A stretch of DNA of 64,000 nucleotides from Minisyncoccota bacterium (lineage in GTDB: Bacteria; Patescibacteriota; Minisyncoccia; Phycocordibacterales; CALRHW01), in contig JAXLZT010000001.1 in NCBI GenBank assembly GCA_046350795.1, positions 80,468-144,467 of the forward strand. The letters run 5' to 3'. The notes beneath the pieces are model-generated. The model was not told the origin of the DNA. It searched no databases and saw nothing but the letters and a program-made list of their open reading frames with translations. Both the position numbers and the translations under genes were made by a program. Shown here one piece after another: positions 3,023 through 59,934 of the stretch (position 1 is its first letter; every line of letters begins with the position of its first letter).

Positions 3023-3429
3023 GGGGATGATCGGCCTAGACAGGAGATCAAATCATATATGTGCAAAGTGGAGCTCTGGTGACTCCTAAATCCGCCAGAA
3101 ATTCTAAGTGCAAACGCCTTAGTTACAAAAGCAAAGATCGTCTCTCCATTTTTTGGACAGAAAGATTTTGCTTTCGCTTACGCTTTAGCCTAAGCGACGT
3201 CGCACGAGCCGGCTCCCGTAAAGCTCATTGCGGTGTTATATATTCGGGATAAAGTGTCAGGGCGTTTCGACTGACATTGAAAATAATTGAAACTAGGTAC
3301 TACAAGGTTTTGTTTGTTCCCTACTTGTAGTACTCAAATCGTTCGCAAGAACGAAGAAACATCCTAAACTTTGTAGACTCATATCTGATCATTTCTTGCA
3401 CCCGAGTTCGATTCTCGGCATCTCCACAA
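3023..3429 (+). ncRNA. ssrA: transfer-messenger RNA (tmRNA, one-piece)
   Basis: 5' GGGGAUGA pairs with 3' CAUCUCC to give a 7-bp acceptor stem plus discriminator A (3426); T-arm CCGAG-UUCGAUU-CUCGG at 3401-3419; internal tag ORF 3110-3193 reading ANALVTKAKIVSPFFGQKDFAFAYALA-stop (AYALA ending typical of tmRNA tags); adjacent to smpB. Confidence 0.8.
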
Positions 3430-3552
3430 ATTAGTTAAGAAAATCACGTGATGGAAAATAAGAAAAGAGAGTGGTCTATCGTTGAGACCCAAGATTTTTA
3501 TAAAAATCTGCTAAAAAAAGCGCTAGCGACTATTCCTGAAAAAGGAGCGGCT

Positions 3553-3855
3553 ATGGTACTTGGACCTATGTTTATTATTAGAGCGCCAGAAGAAAACTTC
3601 GCCTTATTTGAAAAAGCACAAAATGAGTTACAAGAAAAAGGTGTTGAGATTTTTAATCAATTACCTTTTGTTGACTATATTATCGGAGACGCACCATTTG
3701 ATTACAAAACTAAATTCGAATTATTTTATAAAGCACTCATAAACTCTGGGAAAATTACGTCCTGCTATTTACTTCCTGATTGGGAAAAGTCAGAAGGCAC
3801 AAGAAGCGAAATCCAGTATTGCAAAGATGCGAAAATACCGGTTTTTGAGATGTAA
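3553..3855 (+). CDS. DUF4406-like (nucleoside 2-deoxyribosyltransferase-like fold) protein
   Basis: MVLGPMFIIRAPEEN...CYLLPDWEKSEGTRSEIQYCKDAKIPVF resembles the DUF4406 pattern (AGPM...LPGWE.SRGA..E); RBS AAAGGAG 5 nt upstream of ATG 3553; ORF-track start 3448 probably too early. Confidence 0.5.
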   Translation: MVLGPMFIIRAPEENFALFEKAQNELQEKGVEIFNQLPFVDYIIGDAPFDYKTKFELFYKALINSGKITSCYLLPDWEKSEGTRSEIQYCKDAKIPVFEM

Positions 3856-3909
3856 GTATTTGTTGACATAATACACAAAAAGTACTATTTTCACTATGAA
3901 ATGCACAAA

Positions 3910-3927
3910 ACCGATAACGTTATCGGT
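3910..3927. promoter_or_regulatory. 18-bp perfect palindrome ACCGATAACGTTATCGGT upstream of high-GC gene (candidate operator)
   Basis: seen directly in sequence; lies between a TTGACA-like hexamer (3872) and the start codon at 3957. Confidence 0.3.
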
Positions 3928-3956
3928 CTGAACGAAGACCTGAAAGGATGGTCCAA

Positions 3957-4421
3957 ATGAAGGAGAACGACCTAAAAATCGGGAGAAAGGTGGAAGTGAC
4001 TTCCCTTTCCAACACACAGGATTGGGGAATTGATGACCAGTACCTCGCGGGGCGCAAGCTGGGGGCCGTAGGCACAGCGCACAAGGCTGCATTCGGCAGG
4101 TGCGCTGGTCTCTGGTACATCAGGGACAACGATGGGCGACTCTCCGTCTACCACGCAGACGAGCTGAGCATCCCTCGCGCGGAGCTCGAGCTAGAGCTTG
4201 CCGAAGCCAAGAACGCCATCGAGGAGTTGATCGCAAACGTGGATAGAGCGACCAATGAGGTGCTGTACCTGACCACTGCCCTGCACCATCTCTCCAATCT
4301 TCGGAAGGGCTGGTGGCCATTTGTCGCCAAGCACAGGATCGATGACATCTTCAAGGTACTCAAGGAGGCCCGCAGACTCTTTGAAGAAAGACTTGAAAAA
4401 AGCCGTGAGAAGCCGCAGTAA
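3957..4421 (+). CDS. hypothetical protein, high-GC, coiled-coil C-terminus
   Basis: long ORF with markedly higher GC and different codon usage than neighbours; second ATG preceded by GAAAGGA. Confidence 0.55.
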   Translation: MKENDLKIGRKVEVTSLSNTQDWGIDDQYLAGRKLGAVGTAHKAAFGRCAGLWYIRDNDGRLSVYHADELSIPRAELELELAEAKNAIEELIANVDRATNEVLYLTTALHHLSNLRKGWWPFVAKHRIDDIFKVLKEARRLFEERLEKSREKPQ

Positions 4422-4542
4422 GCGAGACTCACGGCTTTCTCATTTGTCTAAAGTTTTTTAATGGTAGATAATGTATGAGGCGTTCCCGTATCGCGCATTT
4501 ATGCGCAACAGAAGTTTGGGCAACTTACTGGGAGATCACATG

Positions 4543-4818
4543 GCTACGGTGGGAGACATCGTGGAGGTCGTGGACAAAATCAAGGAGGAAAACAAGAAAC
4601 TCAAGGGGTTGGACTTCACACGAGAGCAGTGTGAACTCATCAGCAAACTTGGAGACATCGTCTTTGAGCACATCGGACTGAGAGATGTTCGACGTCCATT
4701 CGCGCTCACCATTCAGGTCAACGCAGAAGCGGAGAGTGTCTTGCACACTCTCCGGGGGTTCTTGATCCAAACACACACAGAGACAAAGAGAAAGGAGCCT
4801 GAAGGCACACTCGTGTAG
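4543..4818 (+). CDS. hypothetical protein (high-GC)
   Basis: ORF 4471-4818; start ambiguous (MATVGDIV at 4543 plausible); followed by terminator. Confidence 0.4.
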   Translation, partial: ATVGDIVEVVDKIKEENKKLKGLDFTREQCELISKLGDIVFEHIGLRDVRRPFALTIQVNAEAESVLHTLRGFLIQTHTETKRKEPEGTLV

Positions 4819-4838
4819 GCGCAAGCCTGACACACATA

Positions 4839-4880
4839 CCGACCCGTAGGAAAGAAATTTCCCGGGTCGGTTTAATATTT
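4839..4880. terminator. bidirectional terminator hairpin CCGACCCG...CGGGTCGG plus T-run
   Basis: 8-bp GC stem 4839-4846 / 4863-4870 followed by TTTAATATTTT; sits between convergent genes. Confidence 0.55.
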
Positions 4881-5438
4881 TCTAACCACACCTTTTACCA
4901 CAGCAGCGATACGAAAACTTTCTGTGGGATAAATGGGTTTGTAGTTTTTGTTGGCTGGCTCGAGCCAAACTTTACCATTTTTTGATCTGTAAAATTTCAT
5001 AGTCCACCCACCATCTACTTCCGCAATAACTATTTCACCATCGCGTGCATACTCGCGTCTCTCCGCAACCACCATGTCTCCTTCTTGTATACCTTCTTCT
5101 ATCATTGAATCACCCTTTACCTCCAACATGTAGGTTTTGCTCTGATCTTCGATAAGAAGCTCGTCTATACTCATAGTGTCTAGCTGATCCTCTTCTGCAA
5201 CAGAAGGAAAACCAGCTTCCACCAAACCAAGGACAGGGACTTGTCCAAACATATTTTTAGGAATGAGCCGGCCTTGAGAATCTTTTTCTACTATCCCCGC
5301 CTCTACCATTTTATTGATGAGTTTGTAGACAGCATTTTTAGATTTGAAACCAACGAGTGCCATGATTTCTTTGTATCCAGGCATTCGTCGATGCTTTTTA
5401 TAAAATCCTAAAATTTTTTGTTTGTATTGTTCGTTCAT
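4872..5438 (-). CDS. lexA: LexA-family transcriptional repressor (S24 peptidase)
   Basis: N-terminal winged-helix (PGYKEIMALVGFKSKNAVYKLINKM), Ala-Gly cleavage site VEAGFP, catalytic Ser in VKGDSM and Lys in TMKFYRS. Confidence 0.85.
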   Translation of the reverse strand: MNEQYKQKILGFYKKHRRMPGYKEIMALVGFKSKNAVYKLINKMVEAGIVEKDSQGRLIPKNMFGQVPVLGLVEAGFPSVAEEDQLDTMSIDELLIEDQSKTYMLEVKGDSMIEEGIQEGDMVVAERREYARDGEIVIAEVDGGWTMKFYRSKNGKVWLEPANKNYKPIYPTESFRIAAVVKGVVRKY

Positions 5439-5459: not shown

Positions 5460-5654
5460 TTAAAGAAACGACGCAAAGCCAAATGATCTTGTGAGCCAAG
5501 CACTGCGACGCATCTGACTGAGCTGACTGCGAAGACGCTTGTGTGCTTTTGCTTCTTTGGAATATGATTGGCCTTTTATAATTTTTAAATCTATCTGATC
5601 ATTTAGCCTTTTGAGCTCATCGTGTATTGAATATAACATTCTGTTTTTACTCAT
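5460..5654 (-). CDS. small hypothetical protein co-transcribed upstream of lexA
   Basis: 64-aa basic ORF between LexA box and lexA, same strand. Confidence 0.35.
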   Translation of the reverse strand: MSKNRMLYSIHDELKRLNDQIDLKIIKGQSYSKEAKAHKRLRSQLSQMRRSAWLTRSFGFASFL

Positions 5655-5697
5655 GTTTTTTATGTTATTAAATAATTAATCTTTATATAGAGTATAG

Positions 5698-5713
5698 GTG
5701 AACTAGGGTTCAC
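5698..5713. promoter_or_regulatory. LexA (SOS) box GTGAAC-TAGG-GTTCAC
   Basis: perfect GAAC-N4-GTTC palindrome (Cheo-box type) about 45-60 bp upstream of the lexA operon start and in the divergent promoter of the 5867 gene. Confidence 0.55.
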
Positions 5714-5866
5714 CAGTCAATGTGGACAAGATTCTAGAAAATAAAAAATGGGTGCGGTCAACTCTACCCTATTTAAATTACGAGTGTATACTTTTATACG
5801 GCGTTCACAAACATTGTGCTGAGAAACAGACCCGGTCTTGCCACTTACAAAAGGAATGGTGACACA

Positions 5867-6205
5867 ATGTCCACCGAAGAAACACCGGAATACGATTTCG
5901 AGGGCGTAGCCCACAGGGTGTACCCAGGAACAAGGACTCGCAACCCCAACATTGCACCGATCCACGTCAGGGCATTCGGTACGTGCGGAGGAATCCAGCA
6001 TCCCATTCACGCTCAGCTGTTGGGTCTCGAAAGACCACAGTCGGCCACTGACCAACGCTCTCAGCCCTCTCTCTTTGGGGATGATGAAGAAAAGAGGTGC
6101 TGTGGCAATCCATCTTGTGCAGGATCTTGTCCGCACAAGAGAGAGGGTGCCGAGATCTCCGCTGACACCGACAGCGTCAACGTCACCTCTTCGGTGAAGC
6201 ACTAG
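5867..6205 (+). CDS. hypothetical Cys-rich protein (high-GC)
   Basis: ORF 5816-6205; MSTEETPEY start likely; CCGNPSCAGSCPH motif; followed by strong terminator. Confidence 0.45.
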   Translation: MSTEETPEYDFEGVAHRVYPGTRTRNPNIAPIHVRAFGTCGGIQHPIHAQLLGLERPQSATDQRSQPSLFGDDEEKRCCGNPSCAGSCPHKREGAEISADTDSVNVTSSVKH

Positions 6206-6237
6206 CCCACATCGCGACCAACGTGGTCGCGGTACAA

Positions 6238-6283
6238 GCCCAACCCCTATGGACGGGGGTTGGGCACTTTTTTTATTTTTTTT
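6238..6283 (+). terminator. rho-independent terminator GCCCAACCCC-tatggac-GGGGGTTGGGC plus T9
   Basis: seen in sequence. Confidence 0.65.
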
Positions 6284-6299
6284 GATGTAAAATAAGTAA

Positions 6300-7376
6300 A
6301 TGGAAAAAAACACTCCACAATTTTTCACCAGAACAGAAGAAGCTTGGGATGCAATGTTGGCCGAATGCTCAAAAGCAGAGCACTCTATAGATATAGAACA
6401 ATACATCTTTACAAATGATACCGTCGGTAAACGTTTCCTAGAGACATTAATACGAAAACAAAAAGAAGGAGTGAGAGTGCGTATGATTTGCGACACAGTG
6501 GGAAGTTATTTTTTTTATAATTCACTCACCCCAGATGAACTAAGAGCAATAGGAATACAAATACAATTTTTTAATATCATAAGTCCGTGGAGGTTGCATA
6601 ATATTTTTTCTTGGTATTTTAGAGATCACAGAAAAATACTCGTTATAGACGGAAAAACAGCTATCGTCGGTGGATCTGGAATACGAGAAGATATGCGTTT
6701 TTGGCGTGACACAAATGTGAAAGTGACGGGTGCGATAGCAGAAGAAATGCAAGAAATATTTAATGAAATGTGGGTGCTTGCTAAAGAAAAAAATATATTT
6801 AAAAGAATAAACAGGTCTAGAAGAAGAAAAAAACTGCAACACATCGTTACCAATGCCCCCTACCTACGTAGACGATTTTTATATCGCAGATTTCTAAAAG
6901 AAATACGTTATTCAAAAAAATATATTTTACTAACAACGCCGTATTTTGTACCAAATCAAAAATTACTTAATGCTTTATGCTACGCTGTGCGACGTGGAGT
7001 GGATGTGCGAGTTATAGTACCAAAAACATCTGACACCATCTTAGTAAACCGCGCATCTCATAGTTTTTTCTATGATCTACTAATGGGAGGGGTAAAAATA
7101 TACCAATACCCACATTATTTTATACACACAAAGACAGCCGTAATAGACGACACATGGTCTACGATAGGTAGTTTTAATTTTGATAATCTCAGTTTCTTTT
7201 ATAATCACGAAGCAAACATAGTTTCCAACAACAAATCGTTTATTTTCCCTCTAAAAAGACACTTTGAATATGATATGGCCAAATCTGAGATGGTCACTCT
7301 AGAGAATTGGAAAAAAAGGCCTATTTTATGGAAATTTCGTGAATTTATGGTTACCCCAATAAGGCGTTTTCTATAA
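6300..7376 (+). CDS. phospholipase D-family protein (cardiolipin synthase-like)
   Basis: two HKD motifs: HRKILVIDGKTAIVGGSGI and HTKTAVIDDTWSTIGSFNFD. Confidence 0.8.
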   Translation: MEKNTPQFFTRTEEAWDAMLAECSKAEHSIDIEQYIFTNDTVGKRFLETLIRKQKEGVRVRMICDTVGSYFFYNSLTPDELRAIGIQIQFFNIISPWRLHNIFSWYFRDHRKILVIDGKTAIVGGSGIREDMRFWRDTNVKVTGAIAEEMQEIFNEMWVLAKEKNIFKRINRSRRRKKLQHIVTNAPYLRRRFLYRRFLKEIRYSKKYILLTTPYFVPNQKLLNALCYAVRRGVDVRVIVPKTSDTILVNRASHSFFYDLLMGGVKIYQYPHYFIHTKTAVIDDTWSTIGSFNFDNLSFFYNHEANIVSNNKSFIFPLKRHFEYDMAKSEMVTLENWKKRPILWKFREFMVTPIRRFL

Positions 7377-32618: not shown

Positions 32619-33356
32619 TCAGCCCCTCTCTCCCAACAACTCTTGATCTATGGGAGAAAATTTCGCCCTCGCCACACTCCAGTAGCGTCCTGCCTCTGAG
32701 ACAAGACCAAACTTCAGAGCAGCGGCATACAGCGATGAAAACTCCCTCTTGCGGTAATAACGATGAAACGCGGCCCGACACTGCTCATCCATACTCAGCT
32801 TCTTGTCACCCAAAGAAAGTTCCGCCTTGAGCACCATGAAGGCCAAGTCAACGAGGTGGCGTTCGACCATTTCCCTGCCCAGAGACTCACCCAGATACTC
32901 GCTTCCAAGACCGAGCTCATCCCGAAGACTGTGGATGTTGCGCACGATCTCAACACCAGCAGAACGGAGGCGGTCAAAATGACGACGAAACTTGATGACA
33001 ATCTCAAGCAGGATGAAGGAGATTGCCATGGCGATGGTGTGGTATACCAACTGAAAATCTGGTTCAAAGGACCACACAACAATTCCCAAGGAGGACAAGG
33101 TCGTCCCGAACCCGAAGAGAATAATCAGCCACATCACAATCCCCAGAATGTGAAACAGTCGGTCCGCCCTCAACACACCGTCAACCGTTTGCTGAGTTTT
33201 CTCCCAGCCAATCCATCGATCGACAAGATCCCTCGACGCCAGATTCTGATTAAGAACAGATTGCAGTGTCATTACGACACTCCTTGTTGCCCAGATTGAA
33301 ATTGGTGGGGTCAGCCACATCCATTTGCAAGTGTCAGCAAGCAAAGGATACTTCAA
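32619..33356 (-). CDS. hypothetical high-GC protein with two central TM helices and helical C-terminal domain
   Basis: TM1 FHILGIVMWLIILFGFGTTL, TM2 HTIAMAISFILLEIVI; GC and codon usage differ from flanks; start ambiguous (33356/33320/33272). Confidence 0.5.
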   Translation of the reverse strand: MKYPLLADTCKWMWLTPPISIWATRSVVMTLQSVLNQNLASRDLVDRWIGWEKTQQTVDGVLRADRLFHILGIVMWLIILFGFGTTLSSLGIVVWSFEPDFQLVYHTIAMAISFILLEIVIKFRRHFDRLRSAGVEIVRNIHSLRDELGLGSEYLGESLGREMVERHLVDLAFMVLKAELSLGDKKLSMDEQCRAAFHRYYRKREFSSLYAAALKFGLVSEAGRYWSVARAKFSPIDQELLGERG

Positions 33357-39468: not shown

Positions 39469-39586
39469 ATAAAAGACGTATTAGACCAGACTTGACTTTT
39501 CTATAAAAAATGTTAGATTTTGCTGGTTCGTGGAAACAATTCACGACAAGCACATTCACACTTCAAATCTCACAGGAGACTGGACA

Positions 39587-40673
39587 CATGAAGAAGGTTC
39601 TTTTCGTCGCACAAGATGCGGCGCCAAGCAGGGCATTCCAGAGGTTTGCCCCTGCTTTGACTGAGGCTGGTTTTGGCGTTGAGCTCATTGTCGCTGACGG
39701 CAAGACCTTCCCGACAATCGACGGAGGCATGTCTCGAAAGGTGGGGTCTGCGGACCTACTTGTCATTGGCATGTCCTCACGACCTGAGTACGCAACGGAC
39801 GAATTGTTTGCCGCCAAGCAAGCAATCAAGTCTGGGGTGCCACTCGCCTGCTACGGTGACGTGCCAGGCTGTCATGTGCGTCACGCTTTCTGGGGGAATG
39901 ACATCTCCCGAGAGCTTTCGCTCTACCTCGGCTACAACCAAGCAGAGGAGGACGGCGTGCGGAAGTCTTTCCCAAACGCTCGTTTCCGTGCGATCGGCAA
40001 CCCACTTCGTGAGGAGATGGCATTTGCGCGATATACTCGCGAAGAGGTGCGTCTCCGTCTGGGTGTCACCCCAGATGACAAGGTCATTCTGGTGGGCGGT
40101 GGCAAGAGTCCATACAGCAACATGGTTCGTATCGGGCTCGTGCTCGAAACGATGAACATGTTGGATGGATTCCGCAAGACGCCCATCAAGGTGTTGCTCT
40201 CTCTGCATCCGGGAGACAAGGCGCCGGTCTCCAACTACGACGAAATCGTCAAGGAGAGTCCGGTGCCATTCCGGATTGCTGAGTCCATCAAGGGAAAGTT
40301 CGAGACCTCCGACATGATCGGGGGCGCCGATCTGGTCTTTTGCGGACTCACTGGTTCGACAGCCATCGAAGCCGCCTACAAGCGGATTCCGGTCATTCAG
40401 ACCGGTGGTGAGATCGAGCTTGTGAAGCTCTTCAAGGAAACCGGATCAAGGACTCCTGAAGCAGTGGCCGTTGGAGCATCATTGTTCTGCAACGGAGGAA
40501 ACTGCGGGCTCGATCTCGTAAGAGCAATGGATCTGATCTGGGGCACTGGTGTGGGAGCAAGCCTCATGAACGACCAAGCCTCCGCCTACCCGATCCCACA
40601 AAGGGTCGGGCAGGCAACGGAAAACGCTGTCAACGTAATCCGTGAATTCTTGGAAGTTCCGGCCATGGCCTGA
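39587..40673 (+). CDS. high-GC hypothetical protein, two Rossmann-like halves (GT-B glycosyltransferase / UDP-sugar epimerase-like)
   Basis: RBS AGGAGA before ATG 39587; KVLFVAQDAAPSRAFQRFAPAL N-terminus, KVILVGGGKSP and DLVFCGLTGSTAIEAAYKRIPVI in second half; about 60% GC. Confidence 0.5.
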
Positions 40674-59259: not shown

Positions 59260-59814
59260 TCAGTTGTTGTGTGGAGAGAAGCGACCTCCATAGCTGTCGT
59301 CCCCCGGGGACTTTCCCTTCTTCCACCAGTCAGCGGGGTCTTCTGTCTCCCTCTTGGGGCCAAACAGATTCTTGAGAAACACCCCCCAGAATCTTGCCTT
59401 GGCAGATCCAGTCTTCCTTGACTGGTGTTCTGCAACATCCGCGGCTGCCATCAGCCCAGCGGTAATCACATCCGCCAAGACGTCGTTGTCAGTGTTGATC
59501 TTCCTGGGTTCCTTCCACCGGAACGTCCAGGCCACCACAAGTCCCACCATCGCACACATCAAAGATTTGACGATCCACAACTGAGTTATGGAGAGGCCCG
59601 TGCTGGTCGGGACACCGTCGATCAGCATCGACATGCAGAAGCATGTCACGGCGACCGCCCTCACTGCATTGTTTGCCATCGTTCGCTTCCACCGAAGCGG
59701 AAGGACAAACGACACAAACAGAACGCCTGAAGAGATGAGAAACATCATAGCGGGAACGAAGGTCATGAATAGCTCCTTGTAAATCAAGTTTTTGACCACC
59801 GCATTGGTAGCCAT
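59260..59814 (-). CDS. hypothetical high-GC membrane protein
   Basis: 3 predicted TM helices, about 58% GC, start at MATNAVV (ORF-track start 59871). Confidence 0.45.
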   Translation of the reverse strand: MATNAVVKNLIYKELFMTFVPAMMFLISSGVLFVSFVLPLRWKRTMANNAVRAVAVTCFCMSMLIDGVPTSTGLSITQLWIVKSLMCAMVGLVVAWTFRWKEPRKINTDNDVLADVITAGLMAAADVAEHQSRKTGSAKARFWGVFLKNLFGPKRETEDPADWWKKGKSPGDDSYGGRFSPHNN

Positions 59815-59934
59815 ATTTACAAAACCCCCACTGATAAAGAATCTTGTAAATATGGCCACCTCACACAACAAATGTTAAAGAACCCTACTTTTATATTATA
59901 CACCTAAAATATCTACCTGTCAATAGACCATATT

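Follow-up and report, generated by a model that had tools for sequence, protein, structure and literature searches.

The small-ORF/lexA operon and its promoter

The window, by which we mean the whole stretch of 64,000 nucleotides that was analysed, derives from a Candidatus Paceibacterota genome and has a GC content of approximately 40%. On its minus strand lies a short operon in which a small ORF is followed by lexA. The features at this locus are listed here by position in the window.

4838..4871, no strand: GC-rich hairpin ACCGACCCG...CGGGTCGGT, between lexA and the convergent gene at 4471-4818
4872..5438, minus strand: lexA, encoding a 188-aa repressor (TIGR00498, Peptidase_S24 and structure alignment)
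5460..5654, minus strand: gene for a 64-aa protein (64 codons; family range 62-94 aa), first in the operon and conserved in nearly all relatives
5691..5696, minus strand: -10 hexamer TATACT of the small-ORF/lexA operon promoter, from the promoter scan, abutting the box
5697..5714, no strand: putative LexA operator (SOS box) GGTGAAC-TAGG-GTTCACC, a perfect 7+4+7 palindrome
5715..5720, minus strand: -35 hexamer TTGACT of the same promoter, from the promoter scan, abutting the box
5721..5729, minus strand: DnaA-box-like 9-mer TTGTCCACA, abutting the -35 hexamer and matching TTATCCACA at 8 of 9 positions
5858..5875, no strand: degenerate box-like 18-mer GGTGACA-CAAT-GTCCACC (GGTGACACAATGTCCACC), 11/14 matches, lying over the ATG of the ORF at 5867-6205
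5867..6205, plus strand: 112-codon ORF in a segment of 56% GC, of doubtful coding status and not shown to be part of the LexA system

The other neighbours are ftsH, smpB, the tmRNA gene (3023-3429), a PLD-family gene (6300-7376) and infC. The hairpin at 4838..4871, which we read directly from the sequence, has a loop above the size limit of the terminator scan and was hence not reported there; it is probably a bidirectional terminator. We also observed that the island between the 3' end of the tmRNA gene and lexA, which holds a DUF4406 gene and two high-GC genes, is variable. It is absent from the related loci L001 and L002, and it varies within the species, since an NT5C gene replaces the DUF4406 gene in L323. 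When ten large ORFs from other parts of the window were scanned with Pfam, they matched housekeeping families (EF-Tu, EF-G, NusA, trigger factor and PGK) or nothing, and none of the ten was recognised as recA, uvr or dinB.

An earlier note on this DNA had described a palindrome at 5698-5713. Reading the window confirmed that sequence as stated (GTGAACTAGGGTTCAC) and we found that the palindrome extends by one base on each side, to 5697-5714. Its dyad core, GAAC-N4-GTTC, lies at 5700-5711 (GAACTAGGGTTC) and the gap between the half-sites is exactly 4 bp. The promoter scan reported a single minus-strand sigma-70-type promoter here, TTGACT-18-TATACT, with 10/12 matches. The 18-bp spacer between the -35 and -10 hexamers is exactly the palindrome, the minus strand reading TTGACT, GGTGAACCCTAGTTCACC, TATACT. 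Transcription of the small-ORF/lexA operon is predicted to start near 5684.

The number of such sites in the window is not remarkable. We found one copy of GAAC-N4-GTTC in the 64 kb where shuffled sequences lead one to expect 0.86, and 52 of 100 shuffles contained at least one copy. Sites matching the box with up to three mismatches numbered 13, below the expectation of 23.6. Since these counts lie at or below chance, the window alone cannot establish the site at 5697-5714. When the window was scanned with a position-specific scoring matrix (PSSM), the box scored 27.1 bits and the runner-up 1.5 bits.

We next describe the product of the gene at 4872-5438. It passes the NCBIfam equivalog model TIGR00498 (120 bits against a cut-off of 110.95), which covers residues 15-187, and contains a Peptidase_S24 domain in Pfam (E 5.7e-27). 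The protein aligns over nearly its full length to the LexA structures of T. maritima and E. coli. From alignment and sequence the cleavage site is Ala75-Gly76 in VEAG(75-76)FP, the nucleophile Ser111 in GDS(111)M and the general base Lys148 in TMK(148). The Pfam model LexA_DNA_bind matches the N-terminus weakly, at residues 19-54 (13.2 bits against a cut-off of 23.7), and residue 11 is the first to align with T. maritima LexA (3k2z); the N-terminal DNA-binding domain was assigned only from the full-length equivalog model and the structure-sequence alignment. In this predicted winged-helix domain the recognition-helix region, again assigned by alignment, reads KSKNAVYKL. These features identify the gene product as a bona fide LexA.

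The box in related genomes

A LexA protein search restricted to one genome per species gave 80 loci from Parcubacteria/Paceibacteria MAGs, with LexA proteins 60-92% identical. The exact sequence GTGAAC-N4-GTTCAC was present 220-590 bp upstream of lexA in 73 of the 80 loci, and two further loci carried a box with one mismatch (GGTAAAC). The remaining five were uninformative: four lack the upstream region, and in one the position of the box falls in a 100-N assembly gap. Thus the box is present in 75/75 informative orthologous lexA loci. It is nearly the sole copy of GAAC-N4-GTTC in each locus of approximately 6.5 kb.

The conservation within the box is uneven. The 12 half-site positions are invariant (146/146 half-site readings), and the positions of the N4 centre carry 0.1-0.4 bit each. 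A -35-like hexamer (TTGACA, CTTGCA or ATTGAC) lies on one side of the box at the same place in about 70 relatives and also in nearly all of the metagenome matches listed, and on the other side nearly all relatives have TATACT or TATAAT right after the box. Within the species, the 645 bp of 5655-6299 were compared with ten contigs recovered from other samples, and only two differences came up: 5706 G>T, which falls in the N4, and 6049 T/C. By this pattern the box appears to be the footprint of a protein-binding dyad, not a hairpin. In 1.18 Mb of CPR flanking DNA we found only one additional site scoring at least 14 bits, and this too stands before a lexA gene, in L320. At that locus 2.5 kb separate the small ORF from lexA, a box-containing promoter precedes each of the two, and lexA is followed by a dinB-like gene.

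A metagenome search with the pattern GTGAAC-N4-GTTCACY-TATA, in which the required TATA favours lexA-type promoters, gave at least 120 loci. Of the matches listed, 112 could be classified by their downstream sequence, and in 99 of these lexA, or the small ORF plus lexA, lies behind the box. Among the listed matches, the small ORF and then lexA followed in 58, the small ORF on a contig ending before lexA in 6, and lexA or an S24-only ORF without the small ORF in 35 (directly downstream in 34); members of this last group often belong to more distant lineages of higher GC. Among these matches, the divergent LexA proteins encoded after the same box have in common the recognition-helix motif (K/R)SKNAV.K. 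Something else stood behind the box in 13 of the 112 listed. Y-family polymerases (IMS) are a classic SOS function, and two of the 13 have genes for such polymerases behind the box (IMS, Pfam E ~1e-44). In two others a gene appears to have been inserted behind a lexA-type promoter; one of these genes is a GIY-YIG nuclease, as Pfam confirmed, and the second a 615-aa ORF. The remainder look like chance matches in high-GC DNA. Judged from these sequences, the motif appears to be very rare, very specific and tied to lexA, its small partner and translesion polymerases. A scan of viral contigs with GGTGAAC-N4-GTTCACC also gave at least 120 matches, mostly in the coding sequence of high-GC phages; LexA was near none of the matches listed, and the viral scan is thus uninformative on the regulon.

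We considered whether the palindrome might be a chance inverted repeat, or a DNA or RNA hairpin without a regulatory role. The chance frequency of the 12-base core in the window (1 copy, 0.86 expected) would be in keeping with this. However, across 75 species-level loci the half-sites do not vary while the 4-base centre varies freely, and the LexA identities of 60-92% show that these loci are not assembly duplicates of one sequence. The place of the box in the promoter spacer is also fixed and lies upstream of the predicted transcription start, so that it would be absent from the RNA. Conservation across loci refutes this reading, to which we give practically no weight.

It is also very improbable, in our judgement, that the palindrome is read by some factor other than LexA, such as the product of the small ORF or an unrelated dimeric regulator, its likeness to the Gram-positive SOS box being a coincidence. 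The constant company of the small ORF and the box in Paceibacteria is what such a reading would draw on. However, the same box occupies the same promoter position before lexA or an S24-only gene in the 35 listed metagenome loci that have no small ORF, and Y-family polymerase genes are found behind it as well. The small protein is modelled as a simple helical hairpin, in which we recognise no DNA-binding fold. Furthermore, the motif is identical to GAAC-N4-GTTC, the LexA motif established by experiment in Firmicutes and Actinobacteria (PMC4951493).

Together, this established motif (PMC4951493; PMC11442139) and the comparative data point to a LexA operator and to negative autoregulation. The site at 5697-5714 is thus very probably the operator by which LexA represses its own operon of the 64-aa ORF and lexA. 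The earlier note had proposed an operator of the GAAC-N4-GTTC type in front of a small ORF and lexA, with autoregulation implied. The operator stands on the 75/75 orthologous loci and on the LexA equivalog gene downstream, the identity of lexA on the TIGR00498 cut-off, and the arrangement of the operon on a box that fills the 18-bp TTGACT/TATACT spacer.

We infer from the sequences that LexA binds the box, that it represses the operon and that DNA damage induces it. A LexA dimer would sit on the two GTGAAC half-sites through its winged-helix domains. Because the site fills the entire spacer, bound LexA would occupy the whole face between TTGACT and TATACT and exclude RNA polymerase by steric occlusion. 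Upon DNA damage, RecA would stimulate self-cleavage of LexA at Ala75-Gly76 by the Ser111/Lys148 dyad and the repressor would be removed. The operon would then be transcribed until fresh LexA shut the promoter again.

The high-GC ORF at 5867-6205

The earlier note had also read the box as lying in a divergent promoter, from which LexA would control the ORF at 5867-6205, and perhaps neighbouring foreign genes, making them SOS-induced. We regard this shared use of the box as unlikely. The ORF is indeed divergently oriented, with its ATG 153 bp from the box, and a leader of about 100 bp beside the box, which includes a TATACT/TATAAT-like hexamer at 5787-5792, is kept in the closest relatives. In addition, the second-best box-like site of the 64-kb window overlaps the ATG of this ORF; from the background rate, in a post hoc estimate, the chance of such a site within 400 bp on either side is approximately 1-2%. 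However, the promoter scan found no plus-strand promoter that overlaps the box and none between the box and the ATG at 5867. The hexamer at 5787-5792 is the only conserved plus-strand -10-like hexamer, and at 73 bp from the box it is too far away for steric repression. Of 70 loci from the clade, 42 have a co-directional gene upstream of the box and 27 a divergent one, and these genes fall into many unrelated families, of which the largest numbers 4. The divergent promoter thus did not hold up. A conserved divergent partner gene for the box was likewise rejected, the upstream neighbours being unrelated across the clade.

The box-like 18-mer at 5858..5875 is the runner-up of the PSSM scan. It breaks three positions that are invariant in the 73 real sites and is probably not functional. 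In relatives, degenerate box-like sites occur at 0.016 per kb near the box and at 0.021 per kb far from it. Cooperative or looping models were rejected because such secondary sites are not enriched near the primary box.

The ORF itself has few of the marks of a gene. We found no homologue in 5.8 billion protein clusters and no family match in Pfam, NCBIfam, PHROG or PADLOC. Its GC1/2/3 values of 0.57/0.51/0.59 are nearly flat, and its antisense frame has 0 stops. In none of five longer public assemblies of the same species is it called as a gene; the species is represented by assembly GCA_964417815.1 (contig CAYQIZ010000004.1). An Rfam search of the segment, both at the gathering threshold and with E up to 1, gave nothing credible; the predicted RNA fold (z = -2.85) is largely due to two 3' hairpins and is not decisive. 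SOS induction of this ORF was therefore not borne out, given the lack of a homologue, the flat codon-position GC and its absence from the gene calls.

The neighbouring high-GC genes at 3948-4421 and 4471-4818 have normal codon periodicity and are called as genes in same-species assemblies, and L004 holds, in the corresponding place, a homologue of the gene at 4471-4818 with 43% identity. Both are convergent to lexA, have promoter-like sites of their own and carry no box, which argues against their being SOS-induced as the earlier note had suggested.

Comparison with relatives places the ORF in a changeable segment. The approximately 100 bp of 5715-5814 are kept in the five closest aligning relatives (L004, L001, L002, L005 and L011, the last over only 34 bp). 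Similarity ends near 5814, and beyond it lie unrelated ORFs, several with raised GC. L001-L006 have other sequence in place of the 5867-6205 segment, and they carry a conserved 62-aa Cys/His-rich membrane ORF which this genome lacks. The slot between the promoter and the PLD gene may be a hotspot, in which L001-L006 carry unrelated orphan segments, several of them of higher GC. Caution is needed before the neighbouring high-GC ORF is taken for an SOS gene, or for a gene of any kind.

The small ORF, the DnaA-box-like 9-mer and known systems

The proteins encoded by the small ORF family share the motif LN..ID.KII.G..Y..EARRHK.L and end in a short hydrophobic/aromatic C-terminal tail of the FxFASFL type. 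The AF2 model of the 64-aa protein is a two-helix hairpin (pLDDT 81, helices 3-27 and 32-58), for which Foldseek found no significant match in the PDB, the best E being above 4. We found no match in Pfam, NCBIfam or PADLOC and a marginal one in PHROG (E 0.0027 over 13 residues), and reading the family's sequences revealed no hydrophobic segment of transmembrane length. A word-indexed protein search returned only 10 close relatives, all "hypothetical proteins"; the database entry identical to the 64-aa protein (locus tag U0522_00505) is a hypothetical protein from a Candidatus Paceibacterota MAG. The small ORF is thus a real, conserved gene. It appears to be an SOS gene in its own right, since it is constantly under putative LexA control, which is kept even where it stands apart from lexA (L320).

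The promoter contains a further element. The 9-mer TTATCCACA, the textbook DnaA-box consensus, is found in exact form just upstream of the -35 hexamer in most relatives. In the 1.18 Mb of related loci, 103 of its 135 exact copies lie within 60 nt 5' of a box and on the same strand. With at most one mismatch it is present in 52/58 of the small-ORF promoters among the metagenome matches listed, compared with 7/34 of those in which lexA directly follows. The 9-mer is not enriched elsewhere in the 64-kb window, and L007, which has two extra copies of TTATCCACA, shows no dnaA or oriC context. From the identity to the textbook consensus we infer that DnaA may bind the 9-mer. It is possible, though doubtful, that the lexA promoter of Paceibacteria is a two-input switch that responds to replication status through DnaA and to damage through LexA and that drives a new, clade-specific SOS effector. 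Such an effector might, for instance, inhibit division or replication, its hydrophobic tail being degron-like.

The LexA motif of the Patescibacteria is not new as such. Sanchez-Osuna, Barbe and Erill (Environ Microbiol 2017;19:3465) reportedly defined a LexA-binding motif and regulon for this group by comparative genomics. The site at 5697-5714 is almost certainly an instance of that motif. We found no quotation of the motif in the open literature; the study is cited in PMC8565304 and PMC7739468.

The core motif and its autoregulatory logic are already known from the Gram-positive SOS box. The box of the Actinobacteria is flanked as TCGAAC...GTTCGA, and the lexA-yneA region of B. subtilis contains multiple boxes. 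In Paceibacteria we see instead a single box that is exactly the -35/-10 spacer. The flanks differ as well, being GTGAAC/GTTCAC here (mostly GGTGAAC...GTTCACY) and CGAAC...GTTCG in Firmicutes; this Firmicutes consensus is not matched, the T/A flanks being invariant in the 73 sites. GTGAAC...GTTCAC thus appears to be a clade-specific variant of the flanks and not of the core. The Gram-positive SOS box, also called the Cheo box (CGAACAAATGTTCG in S. aureus), has the same GAAC-N4-GTTC core with the same 4-bp spacer and is likewise used for lexA autoregulation (PMC4951493; PMC11442139); in two of the related metagenome loci the core also stands before a Y-family polymerase gene.

These comparisons suggest that the CPR Paceibacteria, with their tiny genomes, keep a classical, tightly autoregulated LexA switch with a core of the Gram-positive type, and that little in the box is new. 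The clean consensus GGTGAAC-N4-GTTCACY in a promoter spacer should be usable for calling SOS regulons in CPR metagenomes. The more useful leads are the small co-regulated protein, which may supply the missing SOS effector where SulA, YneA and SosA are lacking, and the conserved DnaA-box-like element in the same promoter.

As for the second of these leads, DnaA boxes are known to regulate the E. coli dnaA and nrdAB promoters and the replication-stress regulon that DnaA controls in B. subtilis. Such promoters likewise have a single consensus 9-mer, TTATCCACA, just upstream of a stress-related -35; the copy in this genome, TTGTCCACA, has one mismatch. To our knowledge, DnaA boxes have not been reported from lexA promoters.

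The small protein has its nearest parallel in SosA, a LexA-regulated protein of 77 aa whose gene lies upstream of lexA (PMC11442139). The small ORF lies next to lexA under putative LexA control, as expected of an inhibitor of the SulA/YneA/SosA kind, and purely by analogy with the lexA-adjacent YneA and SosA (PMC11442139) its product could be a division inhibitor. We detected no likeness of the 64-aa protein to a known SOS division inhibitor by sequence, fold or membrane anchor. The genomic logic is the same in both cases, in that a small, poorly conserved protein is encoded beside lexA under a LexA box, 62-94 aa in length in Paceibacteria. In contrast to the SosA type, the Paceibacteria ORF, which shows no sequence or fold similarity to it, runs in the direction of lexA as the first gene of the operon and is not divergent, and in place of a transmembrane helix or LysM domain its product has a predicted helical hairpin with a short hydrophobic tail.

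The first gene of the lexA operon and its promoter

In nearly all relatives the first gene of the lexA operon is a conserved ORF of 62–94 aa, which is predicted to fold as a helical hairpin. Two elements of the operon in the window are listed here.

5460–5654, minus strand: small ORF, conserved, member of the 62–94 aa family, predicted helical hairpin
5721–5729, minus strand: DnaA-box-like 9-mer TTGTCCACA, the window's version of TTATCCACA, identified by sequence match to the consensus

Searches of the small ORF against families (Pfam, NCBIfam and PADLOC) and folds (Foldseek) returned no assignment. In the metagenome locus L320 the small ORF and lexA (543–812 and 3356–3925) lie 2.5 kb apart, and despite this separation each keeps its own LexA box. 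The small SOS protein ends in ...SFGFASFL and the tag encoded by the tmRNA gene (3023–3429) ends in ...DFAFAYALA. Because both C-termini are aromatic/hydrophobic, we propose from the sequence that the tail of the small SOS protein is a candidate protease degron.

We found that lexA-operon promoters of the orthologous Paceibacteria loci (L001–L080) and the metagenome loci (L201–L320) carry TTATCCACA, the DnaA-box consensus, 0–18 nt upstream of the -35 element. Exact copies of TTATCCACA in 1.18 Mb of related loci fall at this spot in 103 of 135 cases. Among the metagenome matches listed, the 9-mer, allowing at most 1 mismatch, is present in 52 of 58 small-ORF-type operon promoters and in just 7 of the 34 promoters with lexA directly downstream.

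Variable and high-GC segments of the window

The similarity of the window to its relatives ends sharply near 5814. The slot between the lexA promoter and the PLD gene (5815–6299 in the window; about 1900–2700 in L001–L006) is variable in content. All six closest relatives (L001–L006) encode a 62-aa Cys/His-rich membrane ORF (MEKNTCNCTHHS...) there, together with further ORFs that are unrelated to one another and often of higher GC. The window instead holds a segment of 56% GC, whose ORF is doubtful.

The interval from the tmRNA 3' end to lexA (3430–4870) contains a DUF4406 gene and two orphan genes, all three absent from L001 and L002.

3948–4421: orphan gene, 51–56% GC, real coding periodicity
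4471–4818: orphan gene, 51–56% GC, real coding periodicity

Within the species (L321–L325) an NT5C-family gene replaces the DUF4406 gene in L323. This region resembles a small island of variable content beside the tmRNA gene; no integrase was seen there.

A further stretch of about 300 bp with 54–57% GC (about 2180–2500) separates the divergent ftsH and smpB, which are directly adjacent in L001. The stretch is not repeated anywhere else in the 64-kb window, and an Rfam search with hits allowed up to E 1 returned nothing for it. Three further ORFs with high GC3 were also found in this genome, whose overall GC is 40%.

39510–40673: ORF, 51–55% GC, high GC3
32619–33356: ORF, 51–55% GC, high GC3
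59260–59871: ORF, 51–55% GC, high GC3

The first of these, the single one scanned, had no Pfam match. Given these three ORFs, the lexA neighbourhood is therefore not special for high-GC genes.

The box away from lexA

Box-like 18-mers in the viral contigs named here are unrelated to lexA. Among the matches listed, six low-GC viral contigs (L083, L114, L128, L140, L146 and L166) share the conserved context GC-GGTGAAC-N4-GTTCACC-GGTATATTACATGTTA. The same 18-mer occurs four times with a 33-bp period in viral contig L122 (593–709), and three clustered copies are found in viral contig L195 (8077–8139).

Two metagenome loci have lexA-type promoters (TTATCCACA, box and TATACT) without the small ORF downstream. 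In L246 the promoter is followed by a 615-aa ORF, with a 312-aa ORF after it, and in L287 by a Pfam-confirmed GIY-YIG nuclease gene; these genes are possible insertions into an SOS-controlled leader. Among the matches listed, the same promoter-embedded box in L226, L263, L267, L283 and L315 is followed by short S24-only ORFs of 96–133 aa that have no DNA-binding domain. Peptidase_S24 was confirmed for the N-terminal 70 residues of one of them. These S24-only ORFs are UmuD-like or truncated LexA proteins.
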